DNA of 52,628 nucleotides from a virus (taxonomy: Duplodnaviria > Caudoviricetes): positions 1-52,628 of IMG/VR virus record IMGVR_UViG_3300028840_002598, one strand, 5' to 3'. This document shows, one piece after another, positions 794 to 51,174 of this stretch. Both the position numbers and the translations under genes were made by a program. Numbering within the stretch: the first letter of the stretch is position 1; every line of letters starts with the position of its first letter. Under the pieces are notes generated by a model, which worked only from the letters and a program-made list of their open reading frames with translations, did not search any database and was not told the origin of the DNA.

Positions 794-833
794 ACCCTGG
801 CCGCGCGCCGTGCCGACACAGGAGCGAGTCACG

Positions 834-1223
834 ATGGCCAGAATGATCAACATAAGCGGCGAGGCGCAAACCCTCACGATCGCCGGCAACCCGGGCACGC
901 GCCCGCTGGTGGTAAAACTCGAGCCCGGCCAGGACCACGATTTCGCGGACGGCTATTGTGTGCCCGTCAAGGCCGCACGCCGGACGCCGTTCCCGTCCGT
1001 GATCGAGCGCATGAGCGCACGCCGCACGGGCGGCGGCCTCCCGGAGCCCACCGTGGTGCCCGTGGGGAGCGATGCACACAAGGAATGGCTGGCGAAGCAA
1101 GGCAAGCCGGCCCCGGTGCGCAAGCGCAAGCGCAAGCCAGCGCCCCCAGCTCGCGCCCCACAGCCCGAAGCGCCGCCCCCCACCGCTGAGGTGGAGGAGT
1201 TGACGGAGGGCGAGGAGGACTAG
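834..1223 (+). CDS. Hypothetical head-associated protein with basic/Pro-rich then acidic tail
   Basis: GACACAGGAG RBS at 815-824 and ATG 834; directly after the capsid gene. Confidence 0.7.
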   Translation: MARMINISGEAQTLTIAGNPGTRPLVVKLEPGQDHDFADGYCVPVKAARRTPFPSVIERMSARRTGGGLPEPTVVPVGSDAHKEWLAKQGKPAPVRKRKRKPAPPARAPQPEAPPPTAEVEELTEGEED

Positions 1224-1226
1224 CCT

Positions 1227-1643
1227 GTGGCCCTCACGGACGAACAACGCGCGGAGGTTCGCATGTTCCTGGGGTGGACGCCCCGGTTTGGACAAACGGA
1301 CAACGCGCTGGAACGCGCCATGAACGCGATCGCCACGTTCCCCGCGGACGAATCGCTGATCACGAACGCGATCGGCGATGACCCCCCGGGCCTCCTGGCG
1401 TCCCTCAAGGACGTCGACACCAAGCTGGTGGGCGGCCACGGCCGCCTCAAGGCGGACAACGTGGGATCGATCAAGCTGAACCGGCGCGAAATGGTCCAAC
1501 TGTACCGCGAGGGCAAGCGCCTGGTGGGGCGCCTCGCGCGCGTCCTCGGTGTGGAGGTTCGCGGCGGCCCGTTCGATGGCGGCCGCGGACTCCGCGCGAG
1601 CTACTACGGGCCAGCGGCCCGCAACTACATGGCGCAGGGATGA
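1227..1643 (+). CDS. Putative head-tail adaptor
   Basis: 138 aa; position and helical composition; GAGGAGG RBS. Confidence 0.6.
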   Translation: MALTDEQRAEVRMFLGWTPRFGQTDNALERAMNAIATFPADESLITNAIGDDPPGLLASLKDVDTKLVGGHGRLKADNVGSIKLNRREMVQLYREGKRLVGRLARVLGVEVRGGPFDGGRGLRASYYGPAARNYMAQG

Positions 1644-1674
1644 TCGCGATCTTGAAACCCAACGTTTTCGGCAA

Positions 1675-2049: not shown

Positions 2050-2052
2050 GCC

Positions 2053-3797: not shown

Positions 3798-5351
3798 ATG
3801 GCGCAGGATGTCTATTTCACCTCGAACCCGGCCGAATTCACCCAGGTGGAGGGCCTCTATGTAGTCGAGAAAGATCCGCCCGGATTCATTCAGGGCGCGG
3901 ATCTTGGTGCCACCGGCATCGCGGGGATCTGTGTCCGCGGCCCGTCCACGGTTCAGTGGATTTCGTCGACGGCGCGCTTCCTGGAGGTGTACGGCGGCCG
4001 CGATCGTGGCTCCGGTGGCGCGCTGGTGGGCGAGGTGTGGCGCTCGCTCCTCAATAAGCGATTCGGATCGCTGTACATCCGGCGCGTGATCGCAACGGAC
4101 GCGGACACCGGCCACGTCCACGTGGAGGAGGGCGTCGACGGCGCCGGAACCGAGGTGCTGAAAGTCGCCGCCAGCTCCCCGGGCGACTGGGCGGCGGACG
4201 TGGGTTGGAAGGTTGAGGACGCCTCGGACGGGGACGCCAATCACTTCAACCTGGTGGTGCGCTACCTGGGGGAAACCGTCACCTACGAAAACCTGAACAT
4301 TAAAACGGCCAGCGATGACAACCTGGCCGAGGTGATCGGGGATGACGTGGCCAACTGGGTGACCGTCACCAAGCTGGCGGACGGCCGCCCGGCGAACAAT
4401 TCCACGGTGACGGAAACCGATTTCGTGGCCGCGCGGGACGCGGACGATTTCGTCCAGATCGCGGCCATCGGCGCGGCCTACACCACGAACGTGGGCGATG
4501 ACGGGACCGCGGTTTCCGCGGACTACATCTCCGCGATCACCGATCTGGCCTACACTCCAGGCCCCTATTGCTGTTTCGTCGCTGGCGCCTCCGTGGACCA
4601 GAACGCCCTCAACGGGACGCTGGTCACCCTGGCGCCGCTGGTGGCGGACAAGGCGTTCCTGACGTGGAGCGGAACCCACGGCCAGGTGGTGGCCACCGAG
4701 AGCGCGAACAAGGGGACGGACATCACCACGGCCTCCGGGCGGATCTGGTGGTGCTTCAACTCCGCTTACACTCTGGACCCGGAAACGGGCCTGGAGATCC
4801 AAGTCCCGCCACACGAATGGATGGCCGGCATCTGTTCGCAAACGGACGTCGACGTCCACCCGGGCGATCGGGCCAATGCGCAATACTGCGCCGGCATCCG
4901 GCGCCTGGCGAACGAAACCCTGACCAGGGCGGACCTGGTGGCGCTCCGCGCCGCTGGCATCTCCACCCTGGAGAAGCTACCGGACGGCGCGTTCCTGTTC
5001 CGCTCCGCGGTGGTCACGGACACCACCACCGGCAAAACCGAGATCGCCCGGCGCCGGAGCGCGGACTATCTGATCCTCAGCGCCTCGGACCGGCTCCGCT
5101 ACTACGTGAAAAGCAAGAACACGCTGGAGAACCGGGCACAGATGGCCGGCGAGCTGGTGGCGTTCTCCAATGCCCTCAAGGACGCATCGCGCATCATTGA
5201 GGATTTCGCGATCGATCAGTCCATGAACACGGACGCGAGCCGGGGCCAGGGCATCGAGAAAATTCGGTGGGACGTTCGGCTGATCGGCCACATGCTCCAC
5301 CTGATCCTCGAAAGCACGATCGGGACCACGGTCACGATCGAGGAGTCATAG
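3798..5351 (+). CDS. Tail sheath protein
   Basis: 517 aa; GLYVVE, GICVRGP, ASSPGDW, PPHEWMAG, RRRSADY; AGGAG RBS. Confidence 0.9.
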   Translation: MAQDVYFTSNPAEFTQVEGLYVVEKDPPGFIQGADLGATGIAGICVRGPSTVQWISSTARFLEVYGGRDRGSGGALVGEVWRSLLNKRFGSLYIRRVIATDADTGHVHVEEGVDGAGTEVLKVAASSPGDWAADVGWKVEDASDGDANHFNLVVRYLGETVTYENLNIKTASDDNLAEVIGDDVANWVTVTKLADGRPANNSTVTETDFVAARDADDFVQIAAIGAAYTTNVGDDGTAVSADYISAITDLAYTPGPYCCFVAGASVDQNALNGTLVTLAPLVADKAFLTWSGTHGQVVATESANKGTDITTASGRIWWCFNSAYTLDPETGLEIQVPPHEWMAGICSQTDVDVHPGDRANAQYCAGIRRLANETLTRADLVALRAAGISTLEKLPDGAFLFRSAVVTDTTTGKTEIARRRSADYLILSASDRLRYYVKSKNTLENRAQMAGELVAFSNALKDASRIIEDFAIDQSMNTDASRGQGIEKIRWDVRLIGHMLHLILESTIGTTVTIEES

Positions 5352-5848: not shown

Positions 5849-5890
5849 CAGGCTCGAGCCCGCTAGCAACCACCAGACACAGGAGTGATC
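5845..5890 (+). promoter_or_regulatory. Composite intergenic element CTAGCAGGCTCGAGCCCGCTAG plus CCACCAGACACAGGAGTGATC
   Basis: 17-bp identity with 41185-41201; 21-bp identity with 20558-20578. Confidence 0.7.
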
Positions 5891-14623: not shown

Positions 14624-15096
14624 GCGGTTACACGTGGACCTTGCCCGGCGTTACCGTGGGGGCCGCGGGGATCGGCGATTCCGATCGCGCGAGCCAATAC
14701 GATCGCCTGTGGGGCCGGGACATTTGGCTGGACGTGACGGGGAGCGCAAACCTGGAGGTGACGCCCTCCGGCGATTACCTCACCGTGGGCGGCGCTCGCG
14801 CGCTTCGCCAGGCGATCGCCCGTCGTATAATCACCGATCCCGGCGAGTGGGCCACGTTGCCGGACTACGGCGTGGGCGCTCGCGCATTCGTCAAGTCACG
14901 GCGCACGCGCGCGGCCATGGACGAATTGATCGAGCGAATCCGCGGCCAGCTAGTCCAGGATCCGCGCGTGGAGGACGTGGCCGCCGTCGCCATCGATGAC
15001 GAAACGCCGGACCAGCTCACGATCAGCGTGTGGGTTCTGGCCAAGGGCCGCCCGCGGCAAACTGAAATGATCCACGCTTCCGTGGAGGTGTCCTGA
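14620..15096 (+). CDS. Baseplate wedge protein, gp25/gpW-like
   Basis: ALRQAIARRIITDPGEW..PDYGVG and DPRVEDV motifs. Confidence 0.85.
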   Translation: MSGYTWTLPGVTVGAAGIGDSDRASQYDRLWGRDIWLDVTGSANLEVTPSGDYLTVGGARALRQAIARRIITDPGEWATLPDYGVGARAFVKSRRTRAAMDELIERIRGQLVQDPRVEDVAAVAIDDETPDQLTISVWVLAKGRPRQTEMIHASVEVS

Positions 15097-16214
15097 TGCC
15101 CGTAGCTCCGAGCTTTGAAGATCTCCTAGCCCAAGGAATGGCCGAAGCGCAAACCCGGCGGCCGTCCCTCCAGTTCTATGACGGGGACGTGAGCCTGGCC
15201 ACCTTGCACGGCGGCGCGGCCATGTCGGACGCTTGCATCCGATTCGGCGCGCAAGCGTTCCGCGAAACGTTCATTGACGGCGCGCGAGGCGATGCCCTCA
15301 CCGCGCTGGTCGACGATCACTATGGGATCCAGCGCCAGCCCTCCACCCAAGCACAGGCCACCGTTAGCTGGTCCAGGCCATCCCAGGGCGGCGGCGAGCC
15401 CGGTGGCACCATTCCGGCCGGCACCACGATCGCCACCGAATTCGACGCGGAAGGGAACGAAGTCCAGTTCACCACGGATGCAAACCTGGTGTTCGGCGTT
15501 GGCGTCCTGGGGCCGCTGGACGTGAGCGCCACCGCGGTCGACCCGGGGACGGACGGCAACGTGGCCGCGGCCTCGATCGTCCGGGTGATCGATGTCCCGT
15601 CATTTGATGCCACGTTCCAAGTCACGAACGCGGCGGCCGCCGGCGGCGGCAACGATGAGGAATCGGACACCGAGCTACGGCGACGGGCGCGGGACTTCTG
15701 GTCCACGCTTCGCCGTGGCACGCTGGCGGCGCTCGAATACGGCGCCCAGCAAGTGGACAGCGTGCGCGTGGCCAAGGCCACCGAGGACGGCCAGGGCCTT
15801 GTCACCGTGCGCGTGACGGACGCGGACGGCAACTCCACCGCCGAAATGGTGGCGGACGTGGAGGCCGAGCTGGAGAACTGGCGCTGTGCCGGCGTCAATG
15901 TCACCGTGCTGGGCGGCGATCCCCTCCTGGTGGACTTCACCGCGGAACTGATCGTCCGGGCCGGGTTCGATGTCCTGGCGCATGTCACCGAGCTGGAGGA
16001 CGCGGCCACCGCCCGAATGGCCAAGCTCAAGGCCGGGGAAACCTGCTATCTGGACATGATCGACGCCTCGATCATCGCCGTTTATCCCGATGACATCCTG
16101 AAAGTCACCCTGACCGCGATCACCGTGGGCGGTTCGCCGGCCTCGATCGCGGACATCGTTCCCGGCGCCGATGAGGTGATCCGGGCTGGTACACTTACGA
16201 TCGTAGGAGCGTAA
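15096..16214 (+). CDS. Baseplate J-like protein
   Basis: ARGDAL, TIPAGT, A..PGTDGNV, GGNDEESDTELRRR, RGT. Confidence 0.9.
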   Translation: MPVAPSFEDLLAQGMAEAQTRRPSLQFYDGDVSLATLHGGAAMSDACIRFGAQAFRETFIDGARGDALTALVDDHYGIQRQPSTQAQATVSWSRPSQGGGEPGGTIPAGTTIATEFDAEGNEVQFTTDANLVFGVGVLGPLDVSATAVDPGTDGNVAAASIVRVIDVPSFDATFQVTNAAAAGGGNDEESDTELRRRARDFWSTLRRGTLAALEYGAQQVDSVRVAKATEDGQGLVTVRVTDADGNSTAEMVADVEAELENWRCAGVNVTVLGGDPLLVDFTAELIVRAGFDVLAHVTELEDAATARMAKLKAGETCYLDMIDASIIAVYPDDILKVTLTAITVGGSPASIADIVPGADEVIRAGTLTIVGA

Positions 16215-18842: not shown

Positions 18843-18895
18843 TAGACTTCCCGCGGGGGATGTCCTCCGCAACCGACACAGGAGAAAACAGGAAC

Positions 18896-18919
18896 ATGGA
18901 CCACTATCACACACCATAG
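18896..18919 (+). CDS. Candidate 7-aa leader peptide MDHYHTP
   Basis: GACACAGGAG at 18875-18884; its TAG overlaps the AGGAGG SD of the next gene. Confidence 0.3.
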   Translation: MDHYHTP

Positions 18920-20509: not shown

Positions 20510-20523
20510 TTAGGCTCGAGCCC

Positions 20524-20557
20524 ACCGGGCGCCGTTGACACGCGGCGCCCGGTTTTT
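20524..20557 (+). terminator. Intrinsic terminator
   Basis: 11-bp stem ACCGGGCGCCG/CGGCGCCCGGT followed by a T run. Confidence 0.75.
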
Positions 20558-20583
20558 CCACCAGACACAGGAGTGATCAGCGA

Positions 20584-25669: not shown

Positions 25670-25766
25670 CCCACCTCCAACCTACGTGGGTGCCTCGCGG
25701 ACGTCGACGGTTGGACTCCTCCTCCCTCCGGCGTTCGCGTGTCCCCACCAGACACAGGAGGAACGG

Positions 25767-26885
25767 ATGGCATTGACTGAGGAGCAACTGGCGCTCCGGC
25801 GAACCAAGATCACCGCCACGGACGCCGCCAAGGTGTGCGGCGTGTCCAACTACGGCGGACCGCTGGACGTGCAACTGGAGAAGCAAGGCCGCGGCGTTGT
25901 GATCGATGAAAACGATCGTATGCGCTGGGGCAACATTCTGGAGGGACCGATCCGCGAGGACTTCGCCCAGCGCATGGACGTGGCGATCGCCGTGCCCGGA
26001 ACACTGATCCACCCGGAGCATGACTGGGCGGCCGCCACGCCGGACGGGATCGTGTACCCGGGCGGCACGCCATTGGCGCACGGGACGGCGTTTTCCTACG
26101 GGCCGGAGAACGTCAACCCGATCGGTGGGCACGAAATCAAAACTCACACCAGTTGGCTGGCCCACCTCTATGGCGAGCCCGGCTCCGATGAGGTTCCGCC
26201 CGCGGAGCTGGTGCAATGCGCCTGGAACCGCTGGATCGCCGCGGCCGTGTTCGAGGGAGGGGACTTCTCCACGTGGCACCTTACGGCGTTCCTGGACAAC
26301 CTCCCCTCCGACTACCAGATCCACCACAACGCGGAGCTGGAGGAAATGATGATCGGCGTTTGCCGCGCGTTCTGGGAGGAACACGTGATCGGTGGCGTGC
26401 CGGTTCCGCCGGACGGTTCCAAGTCCTACACCGAACACCTGGCGAAGCGCTGGCCGAAGCATGGCCAGGATTACGTGGAGGCGGACGCGGAAACGCTCGA
26501 AACGGTCCGGGCGCTGTACCAGAAGCGCCTGGAGATCGCCGCGCACGAACGCGAGGAAACCGAGCTGGTCCAGCGGATCAAGGTCGCGATCGGTGACGCG
26601 GCCGGGCTCGAGTTTCTGTCCCTCACGGAGAAGCAACCGGAGCCCAAGGGCAAGCGCAAACGAAAGCCGTTGCTACAGCGGATCACGTGGAAAAAGTCCA
26701 AGGACACCACCAGCACGAAATGGGCGGACGTGATAAAGGCGTTCCGCCCCCAGCTCGCCGCGTTTGCCGATCAGTTCGAGGACGCGCGCGAGCTACTGGA
26801 GGCGCTGGACGCGGCGATCACGTCGCACACCTCCCCGAAGCCCGGATCGCGACGGTTCAACGTCCCCAAAAAGTGGAACAGCTAG
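25767..26885 (+). CDS. YqaJ-like (lambda exonuclease family) nuclease
   Basis: RRTKITATD, GNILEGPI, HPEHDWAAATPDG, EIKT, VQC motifs; GACACAGGAG RBS. Confidence 0.88.
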   Translation: MALTEEQLALRRTKITATDAAKVCGVSNYGGPLDVQLEKQGRGVVIDENDRMRWGNILEGPIREDFAQRMDVAIAVPGTLIHPEHDWAAATPDGIVYPGGTPLAHGTAFSYGPENVNPIGGHEIKTHTSWLAHLYGEPGSDEVPPAELVQCAWNRWIAAAVFEGGDFSTWHLTAFLDNLPSDYQIHHNAELEEMMIGVCRAFWEEHVIGGVPVPPDGSKSYTEHLAKRWPKHGQDYVEADAETLETVRALYQKRLEIAAHEREETELVQRIKVAIGDAAGLEFLSLTEKQPEPKGKRKRKPLLQRITWKKSKDTTSTKWADVIKAFRPQLAAFADQFEDARELLEALDAAITSHTSPKPGSRRFNVPKKWNS

Positions 26886-26900
26886 ACACAGGAGCAAACG

Positions 26901-28422: not shown

Positions 28423-28460
28423 GGCCCCCGCTAGATTCACCCTGGCGGGGGCCATTTTTA
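28423..28460 (+). terminator. Intrinsic terminator
   Basis: 12-bp stem GGCCCCCGCTAG/CTGGCGGGGGCC then ATTTTTA. Confidence 0.8.
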
Positions 28461-28473: not shown

Positions 28474-28503
28474 TTGCCTCCGCTTTTACTGTGGTCCTAC
28501 AAT
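28474..28503 (+). promoter_or_regulatory. Sigma70-type (probably early) promoter
   Basis: TTGCCT-N18-TACAAT in a conspicuously AT-rich patch. Confidence 0.65.
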
Positions 28504-28545
28504 AATAGTCCGGGCCAAGTTTATTCAGCGACACAGGAGGCAACG

Positions 28546-31649: not shown

Positions 31650-31901
31650 ATGGCCAAGACACGCAACGGGAAACCGCTCAAGGTGCGCCCTCAGCCGGCG
31701 CGCCTGTGCGACGGGCGCAACGCATGGAGGCACCTCACGCCGGAGAATCGGTGCAAGTTCCTGGCGTGGATCGCTGAGGAGGATCTGGAGGGAACGCCTC
31801 CAGGGCTCCGCGAGGCGCTCCTGGACGCCGCGGACGTTATCGCGAAACACCACGGCACGCCCGAAGCGGTGGCCGCCATCGCACGGCTGAGGCGCCGGTG
31901 A
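31650..31901 (+). CDS. Hypothetical protein
   Basis: GGAGG RBS; operon spacing. Confidence 0.65.
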   Translation: MAKTRNGKPLKVRPQPARLCDGRNAWRHLTPENRCKFLAWIAEEDLEGTPPGLREALLDAADVIAKHHGTPEAVAAIARLRRR

Positions 31902-32461
31902 GCGATCCGGATGACTGGTATCACGAGGAGGGCCGCGCGATGCCGTGGACCTATGAGGCCGCGGTGGAGCGCATCCTGGAGGAGGCGGACAAGCCCGGCG
32001 AAATTCTCGAGCCCGGCTACGCCCGCGATCGCGCCCGCGTTGCCGCGCGCGTTGCTCCGCTGGTGATTCGCATCGAACGAATGATCCACACGCTTCCGCT
32101 GGACACGCTGTCCGAGCTGGAGGCTATCCTCACCCCTTACGATCAACCGACACAGGAGGCACAGATGACACCTGAACGCAAGGGCAACTTGACCGCGTTC
32201 CTCACCATTCGATCGGACATGCCGCGCCCCAAGGACGCGCCGGAGGACTGGACGCCGCGCGTGGTCGCGGACCAGGAGGCCGCGGACTGGAGGGAGGCGG
32301 GTTACAGCGCCCGGGTGTATTCTCGCGCGCTGTGCGCCGATGGCGAACGCCTGGACGTGTGGTGCGTCCTGGTGCGCGAGCCCGTGGATCTGTCCACACC
32401 TGTGGACAGCGCTGTGGACGCGGAGGGCGGCGCGGACGATAACTTGACGCCGGCCGGCTAA
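31898..32461 (+). CDS. Hypothetical protein with probable in-frame internal start at 32165
   Basis: GTGA overlap; internal GACACAGGAG at 32149-32158 six nt before an in-frame ATG. Confidence 0.55.
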   Translation: MSDPDDWYHEEGRAMPWTYEAAVERILEEADKPGEILEPGYARDRARVAARVAPLVIRIERMIHTLPLDTLSELEAILTPYDQPTQEAQMTPERKGNLTAFLTIRSDMPRPKDAPEDWTPRVVADQEAADWREAGYSARVYSRALCADGERLDVWCVLVREPVDLSTPVDSAVDAEGGADDNLTPAG

Positions 32462-32479: not shown

Positions 32480-32749
32480 ATGGGTGGACGGAACGGCGCA
32501 CACGGCCCCCGCTCGCGCGGGCGGCCTCGCAAGTACCCCCAACCCTCTAGCGCGTTTTCCGCGTGGCTCAAGGAGTGGCTGGAGGTTGACGGGAACACAA
32601 TCCACGGCCTCGGGCGCTCCCTCGGGATCAGTCCGTCGACCGTGTACAATCTGAGGAACGGATACTTTCCACCGGGACGCCAGCTCGCGATCTCCATCGC
32701 GCGCGAAAGCGGCGGCGCCGTCCCGGTGGATTCCTGGGATCCCAAGTAG
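32480..32749 (+). CDS. Cro/XRE-like HTH regulator with AT-hook
   Basis: RGRPRK; LGRSLGISPSTVYNLRNG..P..LA..I..GGAV....W. Confidence 0.85.
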   Translation: MGGRNGAHGPRSRGRPRKYPQPSSAFSAWLKEWLEVDGNTIHGLGRSLGISPSTVYNLRNGYFPPGRQLAISIARESGGAVPVDSWDPK

Positions 32750-39626: not shown

Positions 39627-40031
39627 ATGGCGGACGAACACAAAAGCAACTTTCTGATCACCCTGGAGGAGATGACCGAGGGCAAGGTGATCAAGCGCCT
39701 AGATGAGGAACTGGCCAAGGTGATCGAAGCGGTGGGCGACACCACCAAGGTGGGATCCGTAACCCTCAAGCTGTCGATCAAGTGGGAAAACGCCATGGCC
39801 ATGGTGAGCGCCGATGTCACCACCAAGATCCCACAGCACGGCCTCCCCGCGTCCCTGTTCTACTTCGGGAACAAGGAGGACGGGAAGCTATACCGCGAGG
39901 ACCCGCGCCAGCTCACCCTCCGCAACCTCGAACCCAAGAAACCGGCTCCGCTCCGCGCGGTGGCTGAACTACCCGTGGCCCCAATTCGCGAGGGCGACCC
40001 GGGCGACCCGGACACCGAAACCCACCATTAG
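39627..40031 (+). CDS. YfdP-like protein
   Basis: L..V..AV..T.K.GSVTLKL.I..K.P..F..G.L.REDPRQ; adjacent to YfdQ. Confidence 0.75.
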   Translation: MADEHKSNFLITLEEMTEGKVIKRLDEELAKVIEAVGDTTKVGSVTLKLSIKWENAMAMVSADVTTKIPQHGLPASLFYFGNKEDGKLYREDPRQLTLRNLEPKKPAPLRAVAELPVAPIREGDPGDPDTETHH

Positions 40032-40046
40032 ACACAGGAGGACCGA

Positions 40047-40931
40047 ATGGCAACCGAACAAACCGAAGTCCGCGCGGCGGTAACCGCCGGCGCACAGGCC
40101 GCCAAGCTCAAGGAGCGCATGGCAACGCTGGACGGGATCCCGATCGTTCTGGCGAACGGGGACCAGAAAGTGATCGTTCCCCGCGAGGCCCTGGAGTTGA
40201 TCGCGGAGCGCCAGGGCCACCCAGCACGGGCCAGCGGCGTGTCCGTCCACCACCAGCTCGATAGCTTCACCGCCCACGTGAACCGGAACAAGCGGCCGTC
40301 CACCACGCTATGGGCGGACGTGGAGGATCAGGAGGTGCAAGCGATTTACAATTACCACGGCGCGGAGCCCGAGGAGAACAGCTATCCCGGGTGGCTGGAC
40401 TACCGCGCGCGGTATTCGATGCCCACCGCGGACGCCTGGGACTTCTGGACCGGCAAGGCCGGCGACACCATGCACCAGGACGAATTCGGGGACCTGATCG
40501 AGGAGCGAATGGACGATCTCACCTCCGGCGAGGGTTACCCGAAGCCCGCGGCGCTCCTGGAGATGGCGCGCAACCTCAAGATCCACACGGCGGGACAGTT
40601 CACGCGCTCCGTGAACCCCACCACCGGCGAGTCCGCGCTGGTGTGCAAAACCGAGCACACCCAGGACAGCACCAAGATCCCGCGCGCGTTTCAGATCGGG
40701 ATCCCGGTGTTCCGCTCCGGCGTGAGCTACGCGGTGGAGTGCCGGATCCGGTTCCGCCTCCAGCACGGGAACGCGATCTTTTCGTTCGAGGTTCACCGCG
40801 AGCGCGAGATCCTCCTGGACGCTTTCTCCGAGGCCGTGGCCTCGATCGAGTCCGCGTGTGAGGGCGTCCCGGTGTTCTGGGGCGTGCCCGAACAGAAGCC
40901 CACGCCGGCGATCGTCGACTGTCCGTTCTAG
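40047..40931 (+). CDS. YfdQ/DUF2303 family protein
   Basis: DSF..VN, AIYNYH, GW.DYRA, Q.EF..IE, IP..F.I.IPVF. Confidence 0.85.
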   Translation: MATEQTEVRAAVTAGAQAAKLKERMATLDGIPIVLANGDQKVIVPREALELIAERQGHPARASGVSVHHQLDSFTAHVNRNKRPSTTLWADVEDQEVQAIYNYHGAEPEENSYPGWLDYRARYSMPTADAWDFWTGKAGDTMHQDEFGDLIEERMDDLTSGEGYPKPAALLEMARNLKIHTAGQFTRSVNPTTGESALVCKTEHTQDSTKIPRAFQIGIPVFRSGVSYAVECRIRFRLQHGNAIFSFEVHREREILLDAFSEAVASIESACEGVPVFWGVPEQKPTPAIVDCPF

Positions 40932-41188: not shown

Positions 41189-41219
41189 CAGGCTCGAGCC
41201 CACGACGCAGGAGGAACGG

Positions 41220-41850
41220 ATGGCAACCGAGGAACAGCAACGCGAGATCCAGCGGCGCGAGTCCGCACGCGCGCGCCGCGCAATGTTCGCCGCGCACGCA
41301 ATGGCGGCAATGCTCACGGAGCCGGACATCGATCGGCACTTTGCGGAGGTGGCCGCACGCGCCTGGCGAATGGCGGACCCACCGCGTCCGCAAAACCTCG
41401 CGCGAGGCTTACGCGGCCCTGGTGGAGTCCGGCGGGTTGAGCGAACGGCGCGCGGAGGTGTACGCGGCGCTTTTCGCCATCGGGCCAGCGACGGCAAACG
41501 AGTGTTTCCAGCACCTCGCCAAGAACCTACCGTTTGACGGCAACGTCCACGCCCGGTTTGTGGAGTTGCGCGCCATGGGCCTAGCTGAGGAACTGGGGAC
41601 GAAAACCTGTAGGACCAGCGGCCGCAAGGCCATCCTGTGGGACGTGACCGATCGCGTGGTGCCGTTGCCGTACAAGCGCCCGGAGGACACCCCCAGCAAG
41701 TCCCTCCTGGAGGAGGTGAACCAGATCGCCATGGAGGCCCTGATCGTCCTCCAGAAAGCCTCCGAGGATTACGCGGACTTGATACTGAGGGCGGAATCCG
41801 TGCGCCTCCGGGGCGAGCTGGCGGACTGGCGAAAACGGGCCAAAGTGTAA
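41220..41850 (+). pseudogene. Frame-broken gene(s): FAAxAM/A..AW..AD domain followed by a winged-HTH domain in the +1 frame
   Basis: Coding signal switches frame at about 41376-41380 (ATG GCG G ACC CAC); the second frame lacks a convincing start. Confidence 0.5.
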
Positions 41851-43230: not shown

Positions 43231-43269
43231 GCGCTTGCGCGGGCTCGAACCAGGACACAGGAGGAGAGG

Positions 43270-44098: not shown

Positions 44099-44307
44099 GC
44101 ATGATCGTTCCACTCCTGTGGCTGTACCTGATCGGCCTGGCGCTCCACGTTCCCGTCCTGGTGATCGTGGCGTGGAGAATGATGCGCGACCCGAAGCACG
44201 AAAGCGCGCGCACCACGATCCTGGCCGCGGGGATCTGTGCCGTGCTGTGGCCCCAGACGATCACCGTGGTGATCAGGGAGATGGCGCGCGGTGGAGTGGA
44301 CCGCTGA
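44095..44307 (+). CDS. Small two-TM membrane protein
   Basis: Two hydrophobic helices with LWP motif. Confidence 0.6.
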   Translation: MSMIVPLLWLYLIGLALHVPVLVIVAWRMMRDPKHESARTTILAAGICAVLWPQTITVVIREMARGGVDR

Positions 44308-45703
44308 ACTAGACGCGCGCCTGGCCGATCTCCTCCGGCTCGAACACGCCGCGGAACCGCTGGCCGATTTCATTGGGCGCGTGAGTCCGCGCCTACCACC
44401 GCCGGCGCACCTCAAGCCGGCGATCGATCTGTTCGAGCGGACCCGGCGCGGACCGGTGCGCGCCGTCCTGGAGATGCCACCACGGCACGCCAAGACAACC
44501 ACGGCCATGCACGGGATCGCCTGGCGCCTCATGCTGGACCCGGCGCTGACTCACTGTTACGCCACCTACGCGGACGCCCTCAGCGTGTCCAAGTCCAGGA
44601 TCGCGAGGAACCACGCGCGCGGCGCCGGCGTCCAGCTCGCAAGGGACCAGCAAAACCTCCACGAATGGCGCACGGTGGAGGGCGGCGGATTTCTGGCCAC
44701 CGGCGTGGGCGGCCCGCTCACCGGCCAAGGCGTCACCGGCGTGGCGATCGTCGATGACCCCCTAAAGAACCGCAAGGAGGCCGAATCGGTGACGATTCGG
44801 GAGGCGATCTGGGACTGGTTCCGGGATGTCCTGTGGACCCGCCTAGAGGATGACGCCTCCGTGATCGTGATCCAAACCAGGTGGCACCCCCAGGACTTGA
44901 TCGGCAAGATCCTGGCCGAGGGCGTGGACGGCGTGGCATTCGAGCGCGTCCGGCTCCCCGCGATCTGTGAGGAGCCCGGCGATCTACTCGGGCGCGCCGT
45001 GGGCGATGCGCTGTGGCCGGAGCGCTACCCGGTGGAGAAGCTCGCGGAGATTCGCTCGCTCCTCGGGGCCTATGGCTGGTCCTCGCTGTATCAGCAACGG
45101 CCGCGGCCACGCGGCGATCAACTGTTTTACGAGCCCGGCCGGTTCGATCTTGAGGATTTCAAGCTGGACGGCCATCGCGTGATCATCGTATGCGACCCGG
45201 CCGCCACCGAATCCACCCGGGCGGATTTTTCCGCCGTCCTGGTCCTGGCGGCCAAGGGGTGGGGCGCGGATATGCGCGTGTGGGTGATCGATCACTTCCA
45301 CAAGCAAACCACCGTTCCCAAGCTGGTGCGGCGCCTGGGGCAATTCCAGCGCCTATGGTATGGCGTCCCGATCGGCGTGGAGGCCGTGGGCGGGTTCAAG
45401 GCGATCCCGGACATGCTCAAGGAACACGATCCCCAGCTCCGGCTCCTGGACATCAAGCCGGTGGGCGACAAGTTCACCCGGGCACAGCCGGCCAGCTCCG
45501 CGTGGAATGAGGGCCGGATCCTGATTCCGCGCGATCGTCCATGGGCCGCCGGACTGATCCAGGAGTGCCAGGACTTCACCGGCGTGAAAGATGACCATGA
45601 CGATCAGGTGGATTGCCTAGCACACGGGTTCAACGTACTATTCGCGGCGAAGCAACCACGGCGGCGCCGGGTTAGGCGCGCCACACACGCGCCATTCGGC
45701 TAG
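44291..45703 (+). CDS. terL: Terminase large subunit
   Basis: MPPRHAKT Walker A, IVDDP Walker B, IQTRWH, YQQRP, CDPA and HDDQVD nuclease motifs. Confidence 0.95.
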   Translation: MEWTAELDARLADLLRLEHAAEPLADFIGRVSPRLPPPAHLKPAIDLFERTRRGPVRAVLEMPPRHAKTTTAMHGIAWRLMLDPALTHCYATYADALSVSKSRIARNHARGAGVQLARDQQNLHEWRTVEGGGFLATGVGGPLTGQGVTGVAIVDDPLKNRKEAESVTIREAIWDWFRDVLWTRLEDDASVIVIQTRWHPQDLIGKILAEGVDGVAFERVRLPAICEEPGDLLGRAVGDALWPERYPVEKLAEIRSLLGAYGWSSLYQQRPRPRGDQLFYEPGRFDLEDFKLDGHRVIIVCDPAATESTRADFSAVLVLAAKGWGADMRVWVIDHFHKQTTVPKLVRRLGQFQRLWYGVPIGVEAVGGFKAIPDMLKEHDPQLRLLDIKPVGDKFTRAQPASSAWNEGRILIPRDRPWAAGLIQECQDFTGVKDDHDDQVDCLAHGFNVLFAAKQPRRRRVRRATHAPFG

Positions 45704-46032: not shown

Positions 46033-46299
46033 GCGTCCCGCGCTACCACGGTAAAAGCCTTGCCATTCGCGCGGCCCGTGTGCATCCTGTGGGCGATGCA
46101 CCGGGCCGCGCCATGTTCTCCCCCTCCCTGGATAGGTGGTTCCTCCACCAGCGTGATCGCGCCGCTTACTATGAGTTGAGCGCGCGCCTCGAACACCTCC
46201 TGGCCACCGCCAGGCGCATACCGGTTCGATGCCCCCCGCCGTCCTGGCCCTGGACGTTCCCCGATCCGCTCCGTGTGGCGCGTGTGATAGGGTTCCCCT

Positions 46300-46557
46300 A
46301 TGGCTCGCCGCAAGCGCCAGGCCCCCGAGGTGCATCACCTCGCGGATCCTCCCCCCAGCCGAACTAGATCCCCCCGCCGTGCGCCAGCGCCACCCGCCAG
46401 CCCCCCAGCGGTGGCGCCGGCGCCGGCCCCACCTCCGGCGCAACCGGAGCCCGTGGAGCGCGAGGACCCGGCACCGGCCAAGCCAGCGCCCAAGCGCAAG
46501 GCGCCAGTTCCCAAGCGCAAGCGGAGGCCCAAGGCGAAAAACGGAGGCGGATCGTAA
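46300..46557 (+). CDS. Pro/Lys/Arg-rich disordered protein
   Basis: 85 aa; TAATG-coupled to the next small ORF. Confidence 0.5.
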   Translation: MARRKRQAPEVHHLADPPPSRTRSPRRAPAPPASPPAVAPAPAPPPAQPEPVEREDPAPAKPAPKRKAPVPKRKRRPKAKNGGGS

Positions 46558-46661
46558 TGGGATGCACACCGAAGCGCGGCGGCCGCAAGTCGCCACCGAA
46601 GCCCAAGCGCGGCCCCAAGAAACCCAAGGCACCAGCTCCCAAGCGCAAGCGCGGGAAGTGA
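46557..46661 (+). CDS. 34-aa protamine/H1-like basic peptide
   Basis: GGAGG at 46543; MGCTPKRGGRKSPPKPKRGPKKPKAPAPKRKRGK; 15 K/R and no acidic residue; below the ORF-track cutoff. Confidence 0.6.
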   Translation: MGCTPKRGGRKSPPKPKRGPKKPKAPAPKRKRGK

Positions 46662-46713
46662 TCGCACACGGATCACCAAGATCCACACAGGATCGCGAGA
46701 TCCTCTAAGGATC
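46660..46713. repeat. Array of six GATC sites at about 10-bp spacing
   Basis: GATC at 46660, 46671, 46680, 46691, 46699 and 46710. Confidence 0.8.
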
Positions 46714-46729
46714 TCAGGAGGCACAAGCG

Positions 46730-48544
46730 ATGGCCCTCGAAACGCAGGTCGACCACGAATTGAAAGGGCTCCGCAAGGTGGCCGAACGGGCGGACGAAAT
46801 CACCGGCGCCAAGTACAGCGGGCGCGGGTCGCTCATGGACGGGCTCCTGGAGGCGTCCCCCGAGGAGCGCGCGGTGGCCTGGAAACACTTTCAGCGCCGG
46901 CACCCAGACTATGACGCGGAATATTGGGCGGAATGCCGCGCCCTCTATGCCGGCGGAAAGCGCCTCCTCCGCGACCCGGAGCTAATGGAGCGCCTGTTCC
47001 CTCCGCACAACGCTGAGGACGCCTCCGTCTATGAGGAGCGGAAGCGCCGCGCGTTTTACCTGGCCTACCCGGGGACGATCATCGATAACCTGGTGAGCGG
47101 ACTCGGGGCGGATCCGGTGCGCGTCACGGGCGCGGACGCCGGCGAGGATGAAACCAAGCTCCCTGACTGGTACACGGACGGGGACACCGGGTTCCTGGAG
47201 AACGTGGCGCCCAAGGGCGGCAAGCGCCAGGGATTCGCCCAGCTCCTCCTGGACACCGTGCGCGAGGCCATGATCTCCGGCCGCGGGTGGATCCTGATCG
47301 ATCTCCCACAAACGCCGGACGAATACGTCCCGGAGTCCAAGCTGGACCAGGAGCGCGCGGGACTCCTCGATCCCTACCTGATCGGAGTTGAGCCGGAATA
47401 CGTGATCGACTGGCAAGTGGACAGCAACGGGGAGCTGGAGTGGGCGCTGGTTTGCGATTCGGAAGTCCGGCGAAACTCGCTCACCGAGGAGCGGAACACG
47501 ATCCGAAAAACGTTCACGTGGTACGACCGCGCCGGGTGGACATCGTGGCGGATCGAATACAGAAAAGGCGAGCGCCCTGGCGACGATCAGCCGGTGCCGT
47601 TCCTCGGTGAGGGCTCGCACCCGTTCGGCAAGGTGCCGTTGATCCCGTTCCTCCTCCCCGAGGGACTCCACGCCATGGGCAAGCTGGAATCCCTGGCGCG
47701 CGAACATTTCAATAAACGGTGCGCGGTGAGCTGGGCGGAATTCAAGTCCCTGTTCGCCATGCTTTATGAATTCCTGGCACCGGAGGACGGCATCGCCTCG
47801 ATCTCCAGCGATGCCCAGCAAGATCCGGATCGCGCCGTGTCCCAAGTGCGAGGCCCTGGCCACGTCCAAGAGCGCGGCCATGAGGACCGCGCCGAATTCG
47901 TGGGGCCACCCGTCGATCCGTTCGTGGCCGGGCGCGAGTCCTGTCAGGAGATCATGCGGGAAATGCACCGGGTCATGTATTCGATGGCCCTCAGCGTGGA
48001 CATGAACAGCGCGGCCGTGCGGCGCTCCGGCGAGTCCAAGGCGCAGGACCGCGCCGTGGCCGCCGTGATCCTCAAGGAACTGGGCCGCCTCCTCCGGGAC
48101 CTGGTGCGCCTCCTCATGGAGCTGGTGGCCATCGCGCGCGGTGACGGGCAAACGTTCCGCGTGTCCGGCCTGGACAGTTTCGACGCCGTCGACGTCACCG
48201 CGGCGATCACCGAGGCCGTGGAATTCCTCAACGGCGTGCCCCAGAAGTCCGCCACGTTCAAGCGGGCGTTCCTATATCGCCTGTACAAGCTGATCCTGGG
48301 GGACGAATTGACGGAGGAGGAGCTGGCGACGATCCGCAAGGAACTGGAGGAAATGATCACCATGGAGGAGGCCCTCCTGGAGGACTCCATGGCCTTGATG
48401 GCTCGCGGCGCCGCGGCCGCCGGCGAGGATGGCGAGGACGATCAGGAGGAGGAGGACGGCGAGGAGGACGCGGAGGAGGAGCGCAAGGCGCGCAAGGCCG
48501 CCGCGGACGGAAAGCCGGTTCGATACTCCACGTTCTCCAAATAG
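46730..48544 (+). CDS. Portal protein
   Basis: 604 aa; HP.Y..W, Y..RK.RA, GRGWILID, VIDW, HPFGKVP, RSGESK; between terL and MuF. Confidence 0.9.
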   Translation: MALETQVDHELKGLRKVAERADEITGAKYSGRGSLMDGLLEASPEERAVAWKHFQRRHPDYDAEYWAECRALYAGGKRLLRDPELMERLFPPHNAEDASVYEERKRRAFYLAYPGTIIDNLVSGLGADPVRVTGADAGEDETKLPDWYTDGDTGFLENVAPKGGKRQGFAQLLLDTVREAMISGRGWILIDLPQTPDEYVPESKLDQERAGLLDPYLIGVEPEYVIDWQVDSNGELEWALVCDSEVRRNSLTEERNTIRKTFTWYDRAGWTSWRIEYRKGERPGDDQPVPFLGEGSHPFGKVPLIPFLLPEGLHAMGKLESLAREHFNKRCAVSWAEFKSLFAMLYEFLAPEDGIASISSDAQQDPDRAVSQVRGPGHVQERGHEDRAEFVGPPVDPFVAGRESCQEIMREMHRVMYSMALSVDMNSAAVRRSGESKAQDRAVAAVILKELGRLLRDLVRLLMELVAIARGDGQTFRVSGLDSFDAVDVTAAITEAVEFLNGVPQKSATFKRAFLYRLYKLILGDELTEEELATIRKELEEMITMEEALLEDSMALMARGAAAAGEDGEDDQEEEDGEEDAEEERKARKAAADGKPVRYSTFSK

Positions 48545-48547
48545 CTC

Positions 48548-50962
48548 ATGGCCGATCCGCACACCACCGGCGCGCCGTTCGTGCCCCCCGGGCACTATCG
48601 GCCACCCGGGCGGGATGCGCCGCTGTTCCCCGCCATGGGAAAAAGCGCGCGCGTCCAGCGAATGCTGGAACAGATCGCGGGCGAGGTTGCCGGGCTCGAG
48701 CCCGCTGTGATGCGAAAGCTCCTCCCCGTGTTCATGGAGGCGCGATCGGAATTGCGGAGCGCGCTCACCGAATGGCTCAAGGGCAAGGACGGCGCCGCGC
48801 GTTTCACCGCGCAACAATACCGGCGCGCCCTGGTGAACCTGGAGGGAGCCCTCCGCACCATGGCGAAACTCGATCCGGCAATGCGCGCCGCGCTTGAGGA
48901 CGGCGGGAACGTTGCCGGCCACCTCGCGGCGGAACACCTCGAATTTGAGCTGGCCCGGTTTGCCTCCGCGTTCGGTGAAACGATCCGGCCGATCCAGATC
49001 CAAACGGCGGCCATCATGGCCAAGGGCGATCGCTTCCTGATCCCCAGGTATCGAACCAGCGCGGCCCGCTACGCTGGCAACGTCATGGAGGACATTGGAC
49101 ACCAGCTCTCCGTGGGCGTGGCGCGTGGCGAAACATACACCCAGATGACGAACAGGCTCCGGCGCCTCGGAGGGCCTCGCGGCCTGGTGGCGCTCCGTGG
49201 AGTCCGCGGCGAACCCGGGGCCGTGGTGGAGGAGATCACGGAGGGCCTGTTCCGGCGCTATCGCAACTGGGGGGAGCGCGTGGTCCGCACGGAAATGCAG
49301 AACGCATACAACGTCCACGCGGACAACGGGATCGACGAATTGAACCAGATCGCACGCGAGCCCAAGGAGGCCCGGTTCCTCAAGCGCTGGGATGCGAGCG
49401 CGGACAAGCGCTTGTGTCACGTGTGCCGCGGCCTCGATCGCCAGGCCGTGCCCCAGGACGGCAAGTTCCACAGCGAGCTGGGCGAGCATGACCGGCCGCC
49501 GGCGCACCCGAATTGCCGGTGTATCATTTCGCCGTGGCTCAAGCGCTGGGGGAACGTCAAGCGGCCCGAGGAGCCCACGCCGATCTATCCGGGCAAGGAG
49601 GGCAAGGCGGCCAAGCCGAAGCGGCCCAAGGCCAAGCCGAAGCGCGCCAAGGCACCGGCCAAGCCGAAGCGCAAGGAGTTGACGGGCGCCCAGAAAGTCC
49701 GCGAACTGGAGAAGCTATCCGATCAGCGGGACACGCTGGCGGCCCGCGTGCGGGATCCTGGTGGAACCGAGGACATCCGGCGCGAGATCAAGGGCGTGGC
49801 CGCGGCGGCGAAAAAGGGAAAGATCCCGTTCGATACCTACCTGGAACGCTTGCGCGGCCTCAACGCCAAGCTGGACGCGGCGATCAAGGTGCAACCGGAG
49901 CCCGCGGACCTGTTCAAGCTGGACGCCATCAAGGAGGACATCTCCGCGCTACGCGCCACCGTGCGGCCCCAGGAGTGGCTGGACGCCCTGGTGGACGCCG
50001 GGACGGCCGGCAAGCAAGGCAAGTGGAAGCGCGCACGCCTGGCGCTGGAGGGCCACCTGGAGGCGAGCGAGGGGATCACCAGACAAGCCCACGAATGGGA
50101 TCACTCCGTGGCGCTCGCCAAGAACCACCGCTCCCTGGGGACTCACTACTGGAACGGCAAGATCAAGATCCGGACCGCGCAAGCCGAACACGGCAAGAAA
50201 TACCTGGACGCCTGGAAAGCGGACCCCAAGGCGGTGGAGGCCGTGGCCCGCGACTATGAGGCGAAGCGCCTGGCGATCCCCAGGCTCGAACGCGATCGCG
50301 ATCGGTTCCTGGCGCGCATGGATAAGGTGGAGGCCAAGATCACGGACATGAGCGCGGACATGGAGCGCGCTCGCGAGGCCAAGGACTGGGACAAGGTGGC
50401 CAAGCTCCGCAAGCGCCGCAACCTCCTCCGGGATGGCTGGGAGGAAATGGACCAGAAACTCCAGGCCACGTTCCGCGAGATCGACTCCACCCGCGGCGCG
50501 CTCCGAAAGCACGCCGGCGCGGAGCTGGCCAGGGACGTGGAGGGTTTGTCGACCGTGGTCCATGAGGTTGTCCACGGCACCGGCCCCAACTTTCGATACT
50601 CGGGGATCGGCGTGGCGTTGGAGGAGGTGACAACGGAGGCCACCGCGCGCCTATACCTCCAGCGAAATTTCGCCCTCCAGCGCGGCCTCGCCACCCGCGG
50701 CGTGTCTTATGACTGGTTCTTTGAGGAACAGATCAAGGCCATCCGTGAGGCTTACGGCGTCACGGAGCGGGTGGCCTGGGACATGCTGGAGTCCGCCTCG
50801 CTCAAGTTCAAGCGCGTGGCCTCCAGCTCCACCATGATGTCCGCGGAGGACGCCGCGGATCTGTTCGTGCGCCAGTTCAAGGACGGGGCGAAGCACAAGG
50901 AAGCGCTGATCCAGGGCCTCCGTGAGGGAATGAAACGACAACCCAGTTACCTGGCACAGTGA
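48548..50962 (+). CDS. MuF/SPP1 gp7-like minor head protein with C-terminal HExxH metallopeptidase-like extension
   Basis: RVVRTE..AYN, KRW..D.R.C..C..LD, PPAHPNCRC; then HEVVH (50561-50575) and LEEVTTE. Confidence 0.85.
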   Translation: MADPHTTGAPFVPPGHYRPPGRDAPLFPAMGKSARVQRMLEQIAGEVAGLEPAVMRKLLPVFMEARSELRSALTEWLKGKDGAARFTAQQYRRALVNLEGALRTMAKLDPAMRAALEDGGNVAGHLAAEHLEFELARFASAFGETIRPIQIQTAAIMAKGDRFLIPRYRTSAARYAGNVMEDIGHQLSVGVARGETYTQMTNRLRRLGGPRGLVALRGVRGEPGAVVEEITEGLFRRYRNWGERVVRTEMQNAYNVHADNGIDELNQIAREPKEARFLKRWDASADKRLCHVCRGLDRQAVPQDGKFHSELGEHDRPPAHPNCRCIISPWLKRWGNVKRPEEPTPIYPGKEGKAAKPKRPKAKPKRAKAPAKPKRKELTGAQKVRELEKLSDQRDTLAARVRDPGGTEDIRREIKGVAAAAKKGKIPFDTYLERLRGLNAKLDAAIKVQPEPADLFKLDAIKEDISALRATVRPQEWLDALVDAGTAGKQGKWKRARLALEGHLEASEGITRQAHEWDHSVALAKNHRSLGTHYWNGKIKIRTAQAEHGKKYLDAWKADPKAVEAVARDYEAKRLAIPRLERDRDRFLARMDKVEAKITDMSADMERAREAKDWDKVAKLRKRRNLLRDGWEEMDQKLQATFREIDSTRGALRKHAGAELARDVEGLSTVVHEVVHGTGPNFRYSGIGVALEEVTTEATARLYLQRNFALQRGLATRGVSYDWFFEEQIKAIREAYGVTERVAWDMLESASLKFKRVASSSTMMSAEDAADLFVRQFKDGAKHKEALIQGLREGMKRQPSYLAQ

Positions 50963-50976
50963 GTTAGGATGCGCCG

Positions 50977-51174
50977 ATGACACAGGAGATCACGTTGCTG
51001 GACTTGCCACGCAACGATTTCGCGGCCGCGCGCCGCTACTATGAGGCCAAGGGCAAGCGGATCAGCGCGGAGGAGTTTCGCGTCCTGATCCTCCTCCAGG
51101 ACGATCCGGACGAATTCGAGGAGCGGACGGCCGGGTGGAACGTGATCCAGAAACCCGAACCGGAGATCCCATAG
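50977..51174 (+). CDS. Small acidic protein, candidate immunity protein
   Basis: Between MuF and scaffold; the true start may be in-frame TTG 50995, six nt after GACACAGGAG. Confidence 0.55.
   Translation: MTQEITLLDLPRNDFAAARRYYEAKGKRISAEEFRVLILLQDDPDEFEERTAGWNVIQKPEPEIP

Follow-up and report, generated by a model that had tools for sequence, protein, structure and literature searches.

A start-associated 10-mer marks translationally uncoupled genes of an uncultivated myovirus-like phage and is probably an extended ribosome-binding site

The window analyzed here is the whole of the IMG/VR virus record IMGVR_UViG_3300028840_002598 (52,628 bp, referred to as G000 where genomes are compared), and it carries a recurrent 10-mer, GACACAGGAG, directly upstream of about a dozen start codons. 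We think it probable, though well short of certain, that this motif is a cis-acting mRNA signal, namely an extended ribosome-binding site (RBS) of the kind of the mycobacteriophage start-associated sequences (SAS), which would serve de novo initiation at starts that are not coupled to the translation of an upstream gene. AGGAG would be the Shine-Dalgarno (SD) element of this signal, mostly placed 6 nt before ATG, and GACAC would be a second, separately selected determinant, predicted to be single-stranded and usually located after an A/C-rich, G-poor stretch. The word would serve cistrons that need de novo recruitment of a 30S subunit, namely those behind a terminator, hairpin, promoter or intergenic gap; in tightly packed genes its place would be taken by overlapping stop and start codons or by an SD that includes a stop codon (TAGGAGG).

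On the + strand of the window, GACACAGGAG occurs 11 times and on the - strand not at all, against 0.17 copies expected from dinucleotide shuffles (n = 100; the largest count was 2 and none of the 100 attained 11), and it is the commonest 10-mer of the coding strand. When one mismatch is allowed there are 19 matches against 3.3 expected. Three additional + strand matches have one mismatch, and the only one associated with a start, GACGCAGGAG at 41204, is counted here as the twelfth copy; those at 38667 and 51481 (GGCACAGGAG) are intragenic and have no suitably placed start. Every copy is followed by ATG or TTG 6–11 nt downstream. For the exact copies at 815, 5876, 18875, 20564, 25751, 26885, 28530, 32149, 40031, 43254, and 50979, the distance from the end of the motif to the start codon is 9, 8, 11, 10, 6, 6, 6, 6, 6, 6, and 6 nt, respectively, and with the 6 nt of the 41204 variant this distance is found in 8 of the 12 copies. 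An ATG that opens at least 5 codons lies 6–11 nt after 10 of the 11 exact copies, compared with 6.7% of all + strand positions. Identity extends further at some sites, with the 21-mer CCACCAGACACAGGAGTGATC present at 5870 and 20558 and 16 nt of it at 25745. A preliminary description of this DNA had listed these copies, their spacing and the longer identities, had read AGGAG as an SD and GACAC as a constant, and had placed copies across all modules; our counts and comparisons bear this out, with GACAC as conserved as the SD across relatives and copies present before early, replication, and late structural genes alike. Its statement that the motif precedes about 12 genes holds overall, with a qualification for 3 copies, since the one at 18875 serves a mini-open reading frame (mini-ORF), the one at 32149 lies inside an ORF, and the start belonging to 50979 is ambiguous.

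GACAC stands out among the sequences that precede SD elements in this genome. On the + strand there are 44 AGGAG-plus-start candidates, of which 10 are preceded by GACAC and at most 2 by any other 5-mer. That the word is the plain RBS context of the host, a chance recurrence or a codon artefact is extremely unlikely. CAC before AGGAG is mildly common at starts of distant relatives, and unrelated phage contigs with 2–3 start-associated copies exist; against this explanation stand the excess over the shuffles, the 34 of 44 SDs that lack GACAC, the conservation at orthologs described below, the location of all intergenic copies outside coding frames, and the rarity of the word in bacteria. Among 401 sampled genomes of one phylum, GACACAGGAG reached at most 13 copies and typically 0–6, like a reversed control word (the tally includes the unpublished genome G399, with 1 copy, on which the claim does not rest), and 3 metagenome-assembled genomes (MAGs) with distant portal relatives contained 1–10 copies each. 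The possibility raised at the outset that the motif is just the common RBS context of the host thus does not agree with these 401 sampled genomes of one phylum or with the SDs of the phage itself.

Relatives of the window were found by portal-based searches. G001 (76% portal identity) has 11 exact copies, all on the coding strand, and G002 (53%) has 3 exact copies and several ACACAGGAG variants; G003–G005 (40%–47%) and G006–G010 have none. The motif is therefore kept in G001 and in part in G002, and exact copies are missing from G003–G010. No alternative start-associated word was seen in G003–G005. A 12-mer with 8 copies in G005 was rejected as a motif of that genome because it is a tandem repeat within a gene; the same genome (record of L040) also carries, within a gene at approximately 48187–48335, tandem copies of a 9-nt unit (GCCGCCAGG-like) that are unrelated to our motif. 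Between the window and G001 the motif is exact at the orthologs of 815, 5876, 18875, 26885, 28530, 40031, and 43254. At 20564 G001 has the one-base variant GACACTGGAG, and at 41204 it is the window that has the variant, the G001 ortholog (match at 29708) having the exact motif at 29693. The site at 5876 is exact in G002 as well, and at the start orthologous to that of 815 G002 has GACATAGGAG and G003 GGCACAGGAG. At 28530 the promoter is kept too, and at 40031 the G001 motif is followed by GTG 8 nt downstream. The ortholog of 25751 reads CCACCAGGAGGA in G001, without ACACAG, the ortholog of 32149 has decayed to GACACTGGAT, and the copy at 50979 is not conserved in G001 or G002, the G001 motif preceding the next gene instead.

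We aligned ten upstream regions of the window with their G001 counterparts, excluding 50979 and 41204. Motif positions were identical in 95 of 100 cases and flanking positions in 229 of 353 (65%), a difference with a Fisher p of 9e-11 that is an upper bound, given the aligner's preference for identical words and the common ancestry of the sites. Nine of the 10 pairs retain GACAC and eight retain AGGAG, and at the orthologs of 20564 and 32149 GACAC is intact where the SD half has decayed. All ten motif bases are under selection. The same comparison bears on the idea that an RBS cassette has spread by copying or recombination between gene boundaries, with GACAC hitch-hiking without a function. 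Such shuffling is known for the PeSL cassettes of T4-type phages, which measure approximately 100 bp, combine a sigma-70 promoter with a stem-loop, and may favour the exchange of modules; in the account drawn on here they illustrate how conserved elements between genes can mediate shuffling (PMC2839356). As in PeSL, we see a conserved intergenic element near gene starts together with stem-loops; unlike PeSL, only 10–21 nt are conserved rather than about 100 bp, and a promoter lies near 1 of the 12 copies only. The 16- to 21-nt identities that link 3 copies, the gain and loss of sites between close relatives, and the 2 genes missing from G001 directly upstream of the 43254 copy would all fit a cassette, yet copies flank only a minority of the genes missing from G001, GACAC is unchanged at 9 of 10 orthologous sites amid flanks that are 65% identical, and one site is kept across lineages in which the flanks cannot be aligned. 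We consider this explanation improbable.

The site kept across lineages is the one before the gene at 26901. The motif or a one-base variant precedes genes of this family in seven lineages with protein identities of 54%–76% and unalignable flanks: it is exact in G000, G001, G002, and L217, reads GACACTGGAG in L218/L219 and G007, and reads TACACAGGAG in L222. The word is lacking at the start of this gene in 28 other viral-contig loci and in 13 other metagenome loci, the latter with at most 58% identity. These relatives came from alignment-based scans (a single-protein scan gave none), and a PDB sequence search with the family profile returned no match.

The layout of the genes shows where the word is used. 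In our manual calls (80 genes, rough calls obtained with a codon log-odds model and inspection) the motif precedes 10 of the 22 starts that lie at least 10 nt from the upstream gene and none of the 58 with a smaller gap, and the copy at 18875 occupies an eleventh gap. With an automatic gene caller the numbers were 8 of 26 gap starts versus 0 of 50 in the window and 7 of 24 versus 1 of 50 in G001. The motif marks starts without translational coupling, not a functional class of genes. Three types of start are found in the window: junctions at which stop and start overlap, SDs that incorporate a stop codon (ATAGGAG or TAGGAGG), and GACACAGGAG at longer gaps. ATAGGAG occurs 6 times on the + strand and 9 times on both strands, versus 1.2 expected. 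The ATAGGAG(G) sites on the + strand (5392, 13156, 14158, 17102, 18916, and 51171) lie mainly in the virion module, their TAG terminates the gene or mini-ORF upstream, and the next start follows 5–8 nt after the SD, which makes them a second start-associated class, with stop-in-SD coupling. The genes behind GACACAGGAG begin with ATG in 9 of 11 cases; their second codon is GCA or ACA in 6 of 11, and GCA alone in 4 of 11 versus 4 of 69 other genes, so that the start contexts of the motif genes look optimised.

All copies are on the + strand. The first, at 815–824, stands before ATG 834 of a 129-aa gene that follows a capsid-like gene (end at 731), and a strong G+C-rich hairpin lies between the two at approximately 744–784; this hairpin is possibly an attenuator that sets the stoichiometry of the capsid relative to the downstream genes. 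The copy at 5876–5885 (ATG 5894) precedes a 136-aa gene between tube-like and tape-measure-like genes. The one at 20564–20573 (ATG 20584) is directly 3' of an intrinsic terminator, a hairpin at 20525–20557 on the + strand with a 10-bp G+C stem, an 8-nt loop, and T5 (inner stem 20533–20547), which ends 6 nt before the motif. A RecE/YqaJ-like exonuclease gene follows the copy at 25751–25760 (ATG 25767), and a 491-aa product (phrog_3657) is encoded behind that at 26885–26894 (ATG 26901), the first G of which is the final base of the upstream TAG stop. The copy at 28530–28539 (ATG 28546) belongs to an 88-aa gene, the first of a transcription unit, and is preceded on the + strand by a terminator with a T-run (28423–28453) and by a sigma-70-like promoter conserved in G001 (TTGCCT-18-TACAAT, 28474–28503, 27 nt before the motif). 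Downstream, the copy at 40031–40040 (ATG 40047) overlaps the TAG of the upstream gene, as does that at 26885, and precedes a gene for a DUF2303 protein; the variant at 41204–41213 precedes ATG 41220; and the copy at 43254–43263 (ATG 43270) precedes a 119-aa gene upstream of the terminase region.

The remaining copies are informative because they do not simply open a gene. At 18875–18884 the motif is followed by ATG 18896, which opens a seven-codon mini-ORF (18896–18919, + strand), the TAG of which (18917–18919) is part of the ATAGGAGG SD; the 526-aa gene behind it starts at GTG 18929 with its own SD, TAGGAGG. In G001 the motif is exact and ATG is again 11 nt downstream, opening a 4-codon mini-ORF in the same place with an unrelated sequence. 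Each mini-ORF terminates within the TAGGAGG that serves the real gene or 4 nt short of it. The features kept here are a suitably spaced start codon and a stop codon adjoining the next SD, not a peptide sequence, and this is what a ribosome-loading site with hand-over would need. The copy at 32149–32158 lies inside the ORF 31898–32461, with an in-frame ATG (32165) 6 nt downstream. This is a single ORF in both the window and G001, and the motif and the in-frame ATG are at the junction of its halves; ATG 32165 is a probable internal start and the 98-aa C-terminal protein a candidate second product of one gene. The weakest member, at 50979–50988, is either the RBS of TTG 50995 or codons 2–4 of a gene starting at ATG 50977. 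Two further observations concern start codons near the motif. The heptamer GACACAG spans the start codon itself (ATGACACAG) in the motif genes 26901 and 28546. An ATG that shares bases with the motif (ATGACACAGGAG) and is in frame with the start further downstream is found at 50977, and upstream of the 26901 homologue in G002 and L217.

Upstream of the motif, approximately 7 of the 12 copies lie 5–45 nt after a hairpin, palindrome or terminator, as judged by eye, and a sigma-70-like promoter is found within 60 nt of only 1 of the 12, the one at 28474–28503, which alone is well supported. A and C predominate in the 4–10 nt immediately before the motif, where G and T are few. For GACAC, folding predicts a mostly unpaired state (mean 0.70, versus 0.46 at the same offset in 70 other starts), and the predicted mean unpaired probability of AGGAG is 0.55. 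No common hairpin was present in the 12 predicted minimum-free-energy folds, and an Rfam search of the window with E up to 1 gave no match. A 12-mer with a 10-bp palindrome, AGGCTCGAGCCC, occurs on the + strand at 5850–5861, 20512–20523, and 41190–41201, each time upstream of a motif copy and 2–3 nt after a TAG stop (the 5850 copy is 15 nt before the motif). GACAC may act through a sequence-specific partner, such as a component of the ribosome or a host or phage RNA-binding protein or RNA. Provided that the motif acts in translation, we give such a partner and a partner-free, structure-free enhancer about equal chances: the exact retention of five bases argues for sequence-specific recognition, and the A/C-rich, unpaired context argues for a structure-free standby region.

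The closest known counterpart is the Cluster K SAS, described as a 13-bp asymmetric word containing AGGAG, with 11–19 copies located 3–7 bp before starts that are mostly ATG, some positions of which cannot pair with 16S rRNA (Pope et al. 2011, PMC3203893). According to that report the host lacks SAS, inverted repeats often lie ahead of it, and the authors favour DNA binding for the extended SAS repeats. Like SAS, our motif is short and asymmetric, recurs about a dozen times in each genome with a single orientation, and sits a few nt ahead of starts that are mostly ATG, and it combines AGGAG with conserved further positions. It is likewise kept across sub-lineages before genes of different families, includes some upstream stops within the word, is rare outside its phage group in the genomes sampled, and apparently has upstream inverted repeats at about half of its copies. 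The two differ in sequence and placement as far as the SAS account goes: GACACAGGAG has 10 nt and the SAS consensus GGGATAGGAGCCC 13 nt (with at most 2 deviations), only AGGAG being common to both; the extra bases are solely 5' of the SD here and on both sides of it in SAS; and SAS is confined to the non-structural arm, in contrast to the copies in the virion module of our window (815, 5876, 18875, and 50979). The extended SAS (ESAS), an imperfect inverted repeat ahead of about half of the SAS sites, has a 17-bp consensus that holds putative promoters, unlike the upstream hairpins of the window, which share only AGGCTCGAGCCC at three sites. SAS phages are temperate actinobacterial siphoviruses in that account, unlike the uncultivated myovirus-like phage studied here, the host of which is, on weak evidence, probably Gram-negative. 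Judged by these features, the motif is an analogue of the Cluster K SAS, not a member of its sequence family, and the parallel to SAS drawn in the preliminary description fits most of the descriptive features. A further SD-containing repeat has been reported in the Citrobacter myophage Mordin, where 26 bp ending in an SD-like GGAG precede 8 gene starts and were compared with SAS (PMC4611695). It resembles our motif as an SD-ending word before starts in a myovirus, and its host is Gram-negative; in the portion of the report drawn on, it differs in length and sequence and in preceding only hypothetical genes of one arm, and its conservation was not analysed there.

The preference of the SAS authors raises the alternative that a phage or host protein binds GACACAGG(AG) on the DNA duplex, as an oriented roadblock or an operator overlapping the RBS. 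The word is asymmetric, occurs in one orientation, and is dispersed in short intergenic spaces of all modules, and paralogous promoters of G002 have the reverse complement of GACACAG, CTGTGTC, in their spacer, with AACACAGGAGG following some 25 nt downstream. These are two sigma-70-like promoters (TTGNGG-17-TATACT) near 42332 and 41222 on the minus strand of G002 (record of L033), with CTGTGTCTGAATTC in the spacer and AACACAGGAGG in a short leader, which form part of an apparent divergent early region missing from the window; a strand map of G002 based on G+C3 was dropped as unreliable. Against this alternative, the two arms are 24 and 27 nt apart in G002, and on the + strand of the window CTGTGTC occurs only twice (3929 and 52249), neither time beside a copy. 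Moreover, the spacing to ATG is fixed, the ATG is kept even before a mere mini-ORF, and two copies overlap an upstream stop in mid-operon. The stoperators of Cluster A mycobacteriophages are a known example of asymmetric 13-bp sites, oriented and dispersed in intergenic spaces, that are bound on DNA by the phage repressor to block elongation and are not tied to SD or start spacing. Our motif is similarly an asymmetric, oriented short word in intergenic spaces; unlike stoperators, it is tied to start spacing, and no repressor-integrase system is seen in the window. A search of the window for an integrase found none and the only helix-turn-helix matches are weak (32480–32749), so that a repressor-based immunity system is not apparent. 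We regard a site read on DNA as unlikely.

The preliminary description had also proposed a translational regulon bound by an RNA-binding protein of the phage or the host, which is possible, and T4 provides examples of this kind in which a phage protein acts on many initiation regions: RegA targets translation initiation regions in about 30 phage mRNAs, and RegB cuts in the GGAG of many early-mRNA SDs, for which it requires an extended context (PMC3014915). A RegB-like or host endoribonuclease that cuts in or near the word and thereby inactivates or matures these mRNAs would have this T4 precedent, and the position of 7 of the 12 copies 5–45 nt after a hairpin or terminator is often seen in processed intercistronic regions. 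However, strong RegB sites have an A-rich 3' context, GG*AGRAYARAA in the account drawn on (PMC3014915), which the mixed G/A/C spacers of the window do not match, and the conserved extension is 5' of GGAG here. Copies precede early, replication, and late structural genes alike, the only nuclease families found were the RecE/YqaJ exonuclease and RusA, and no RegA- or RegB-like family appeared in the PHROGs and Pfam scans of the window. Processing of this kind is distinctly improbable. A host CsrA/RsmA site that represses or times these mRNAs is still harder to reconcile with the motif, and we consider it very unlikely. GACACAGGAG does contain ACA and GGA, and a single-stranded GGA-containing site that overlaps the SD, where CsrA usually acts, is a shared feature. 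In the SELEX-derived consensus (RUACARGGAUGU), ACA and GGA are one purine apart and GGA is in a hairpin loop (PMC4347634, as far as drawn on here); in GACACAGGAG ACA abuts GGA or is 2 nt away. The analogy to CsrA/RsmA sites made at the outset thus fails on this register, on the lack of a common predicted hairpin, and on the lack of a phage CsrA gene in a six-frame search of the window. In addition, CsrA dimers usually use two sites, and there is usually one site per leader here.

Candidate readers of GACAC encoded by the phage were sought in several ways. Six-frame searches of the window covered four families, and those for S21 and DUF3310 were negative, like those for CsrA and integrase. Two sets of 10 proteins were compared with both Pfam and PHROGs, additional sets of 10 with one library each, and 50 more with Pfam. 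Genes common to G000–G002 and missing in G003–G005 were limited to a DnaC-like loader, the N6/N4 methylase, the weak spanin-like match, and unknowns; the candidates confined to G000–G002 are small ORFs at 22830, 23048, 35793, and 36080. A phage-encoded RNA directed against the motif was rejected, since the + strand contains no complement of the word, even when G-U pairs are allowed. Outside the group, GACACAGGAGG-N5-ATG was found at no fewer than 118 loci (at least 118) in IMG/VR, and among the matches listed only G001 has many copies. The unrelated contigs G011 (3 copies), G012 (2), and G013 (2) have 45%–70% G+C and no protein similarity, and such small numbers are too weak to argue for a shared host factor. 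Of two other leads, the 16-mer CCACCAGACACAGGAG gave 23 single matches in IMG/VR with one motif each, taken as chance, and three copies within 400 bp on contig C242 of the MAG G014 proved to be a 39% G+C repeat unrelated to the phage. A full-text literature search for the 10-mer gave no title on phages among the matches listed, and a keyword search for such motifs gave nothing closer than the reports cited here.

Several points weigh against an mRNA signal with two determinants. As the motif contains the SD, the spacing to ATG would be identical for a GACAC that is read on DNA. That nothing 5' of AGGAG can extend the pairing is judged from the canonical, near-universal anti-SD, from which the tail of the host's own 16S rRNA may differ. 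No sigma factor and no recognised RNA-binding family appeared in the profile scans of the window's proteins, and no RNA run is among the sequencing runs listed as carrying the sequence. The codon bias of the motif genes is only marginally above that of other genes (p 0.057). The sites at 25751 and 50979 are not conserved in G001, which has its own sites before the orthologs of 39627 and 51184, and from this high turnover it follows that no single site is indispensable. G002 has only its 3 exact copies despite a tail-fibre-like gene that is 63% identical. To these come the rough gene calls and the upper-bound nature of the Fisher result mentioned above.

The window is a complete, uncultivated myovirus-like genome with 144-bp direct terminal repeats, 66% G+C, no tRNA genes, and coding potential essentially confined to the + strand. 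Matches to Pfam and PHROGs profiles identified, all on the + strand, a tail sheath (3798–5351), a baseplate wedge (15096–16214), the RecE/YqaJ-like exonuclease (25767–26885), a C5 DNA methyltransferase (30110), an N6/N4 DNA methyltransferase (34399), the DUF2303 protein (40047–40931), the large terminase (TerL, 44291–45703), a portal (46730–48544), and a Mu-F-like head protein (48548–50962); the Pfam scan of 50 more proteins added an SU10-type capsid, RusA, an M23 peptidase, and further baseplate parts. No near-identical DNA was found among GenBank phages, and the sequence is matched by sediment and seawater metagenome runs. The best TerL matches have less than 34% protein identity and mixed hosts, and therefore the host cannot be called from TerL. 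Profile searches for prophages with the portal gave only distant relatives, no more than 41% identical in three proteobacterial MAGs and 30% identical in an Arcobacter MAG. Together with a weak Rz-spanin-like match at 23887 and the sigma-70-type promoters and T-run terminators, these are three weak hints that the host is probably a Gram-negative proteobacterium.

Three other features of the window deserve mention. The 697 nt before the portal gene (46033–46729) have a low coding score, are 65% identical to G001, contain small ORFs for very basic Pro/Lys/Arg-rich peptides, and carry a run of GGATC/GATCC inverted repeats directly upstream of the portal SD. Within 41220–41850 the coding signal runs from ATG 41220 in one frame and from approximately 41340–41400 in another, and the second ORF lacks a plausible start ahead of TTG 41341. 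This may reflect two genes, a frameshift or an indel in the assembly, and in G001 the two parts are approximately 360 nt apart. Finally, GGACGTGGAG occurs 10 times, always on the + strand (11320, 12670, 15854, 24096, 24605, 29006, 31589, 36387, 40316, and 50533; 0.23 expected), and only 3 times in G001. Every copy is in one shared reading frame (xxG GAC GTG GAG, Asp-Val-Glu) in ten different genes, which may reflect a codon or peptide bias or a strand-specific, perhaps Chi-like, DNA word.

A further-reaching possibility, which we put forward tentatively and think rather doubtful, is that GACAC is the address label of a dedicated trans-acting factor, either a phage protein of no known family or a host ribosome-associated factor, that loads ribosomes onto uncoupled cistrons or withholds them. 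If so, this phage would have a private genome-wide translational programme, and a myovirus lineage likely infecting Gram-negative bacteria would have invented the SAS principle a second time, independently and with an unrelated sequence; the mini-ORF, the internal start, and the gain and loss of sites between G000, G001, and G002 would then be natural experiments that could identify the partner. On the reading that we prefer, an extended RBS for uncoupled starts, the word is of practical use in that it fixes start codons in these genomes (e.g., 25767 over 25686) and flags 32165, and its compact leaders lend themselves to testing translational enhancers in high-G+C hosts. The kind of element is already known, and its mechanism is an open question: the role of SAS, described in 2011, was still termed ill-defined in papers of 2024 and 2025. 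To this question the lineage adds natural variation and three clues, namely that the word marks starts without translational coupling, that it persists even where all it drives is a throw-away mini-ORF that would pass ribosomes on to the gene behind it, and that its non-SD half is as constrained as the SD. A second, unrelated SAS-like word in a different type of phage suggests that phage-private extensions of the RBS, rather than being an oddity of a single mycobacteriophage cluster, are a recurrent strategy.

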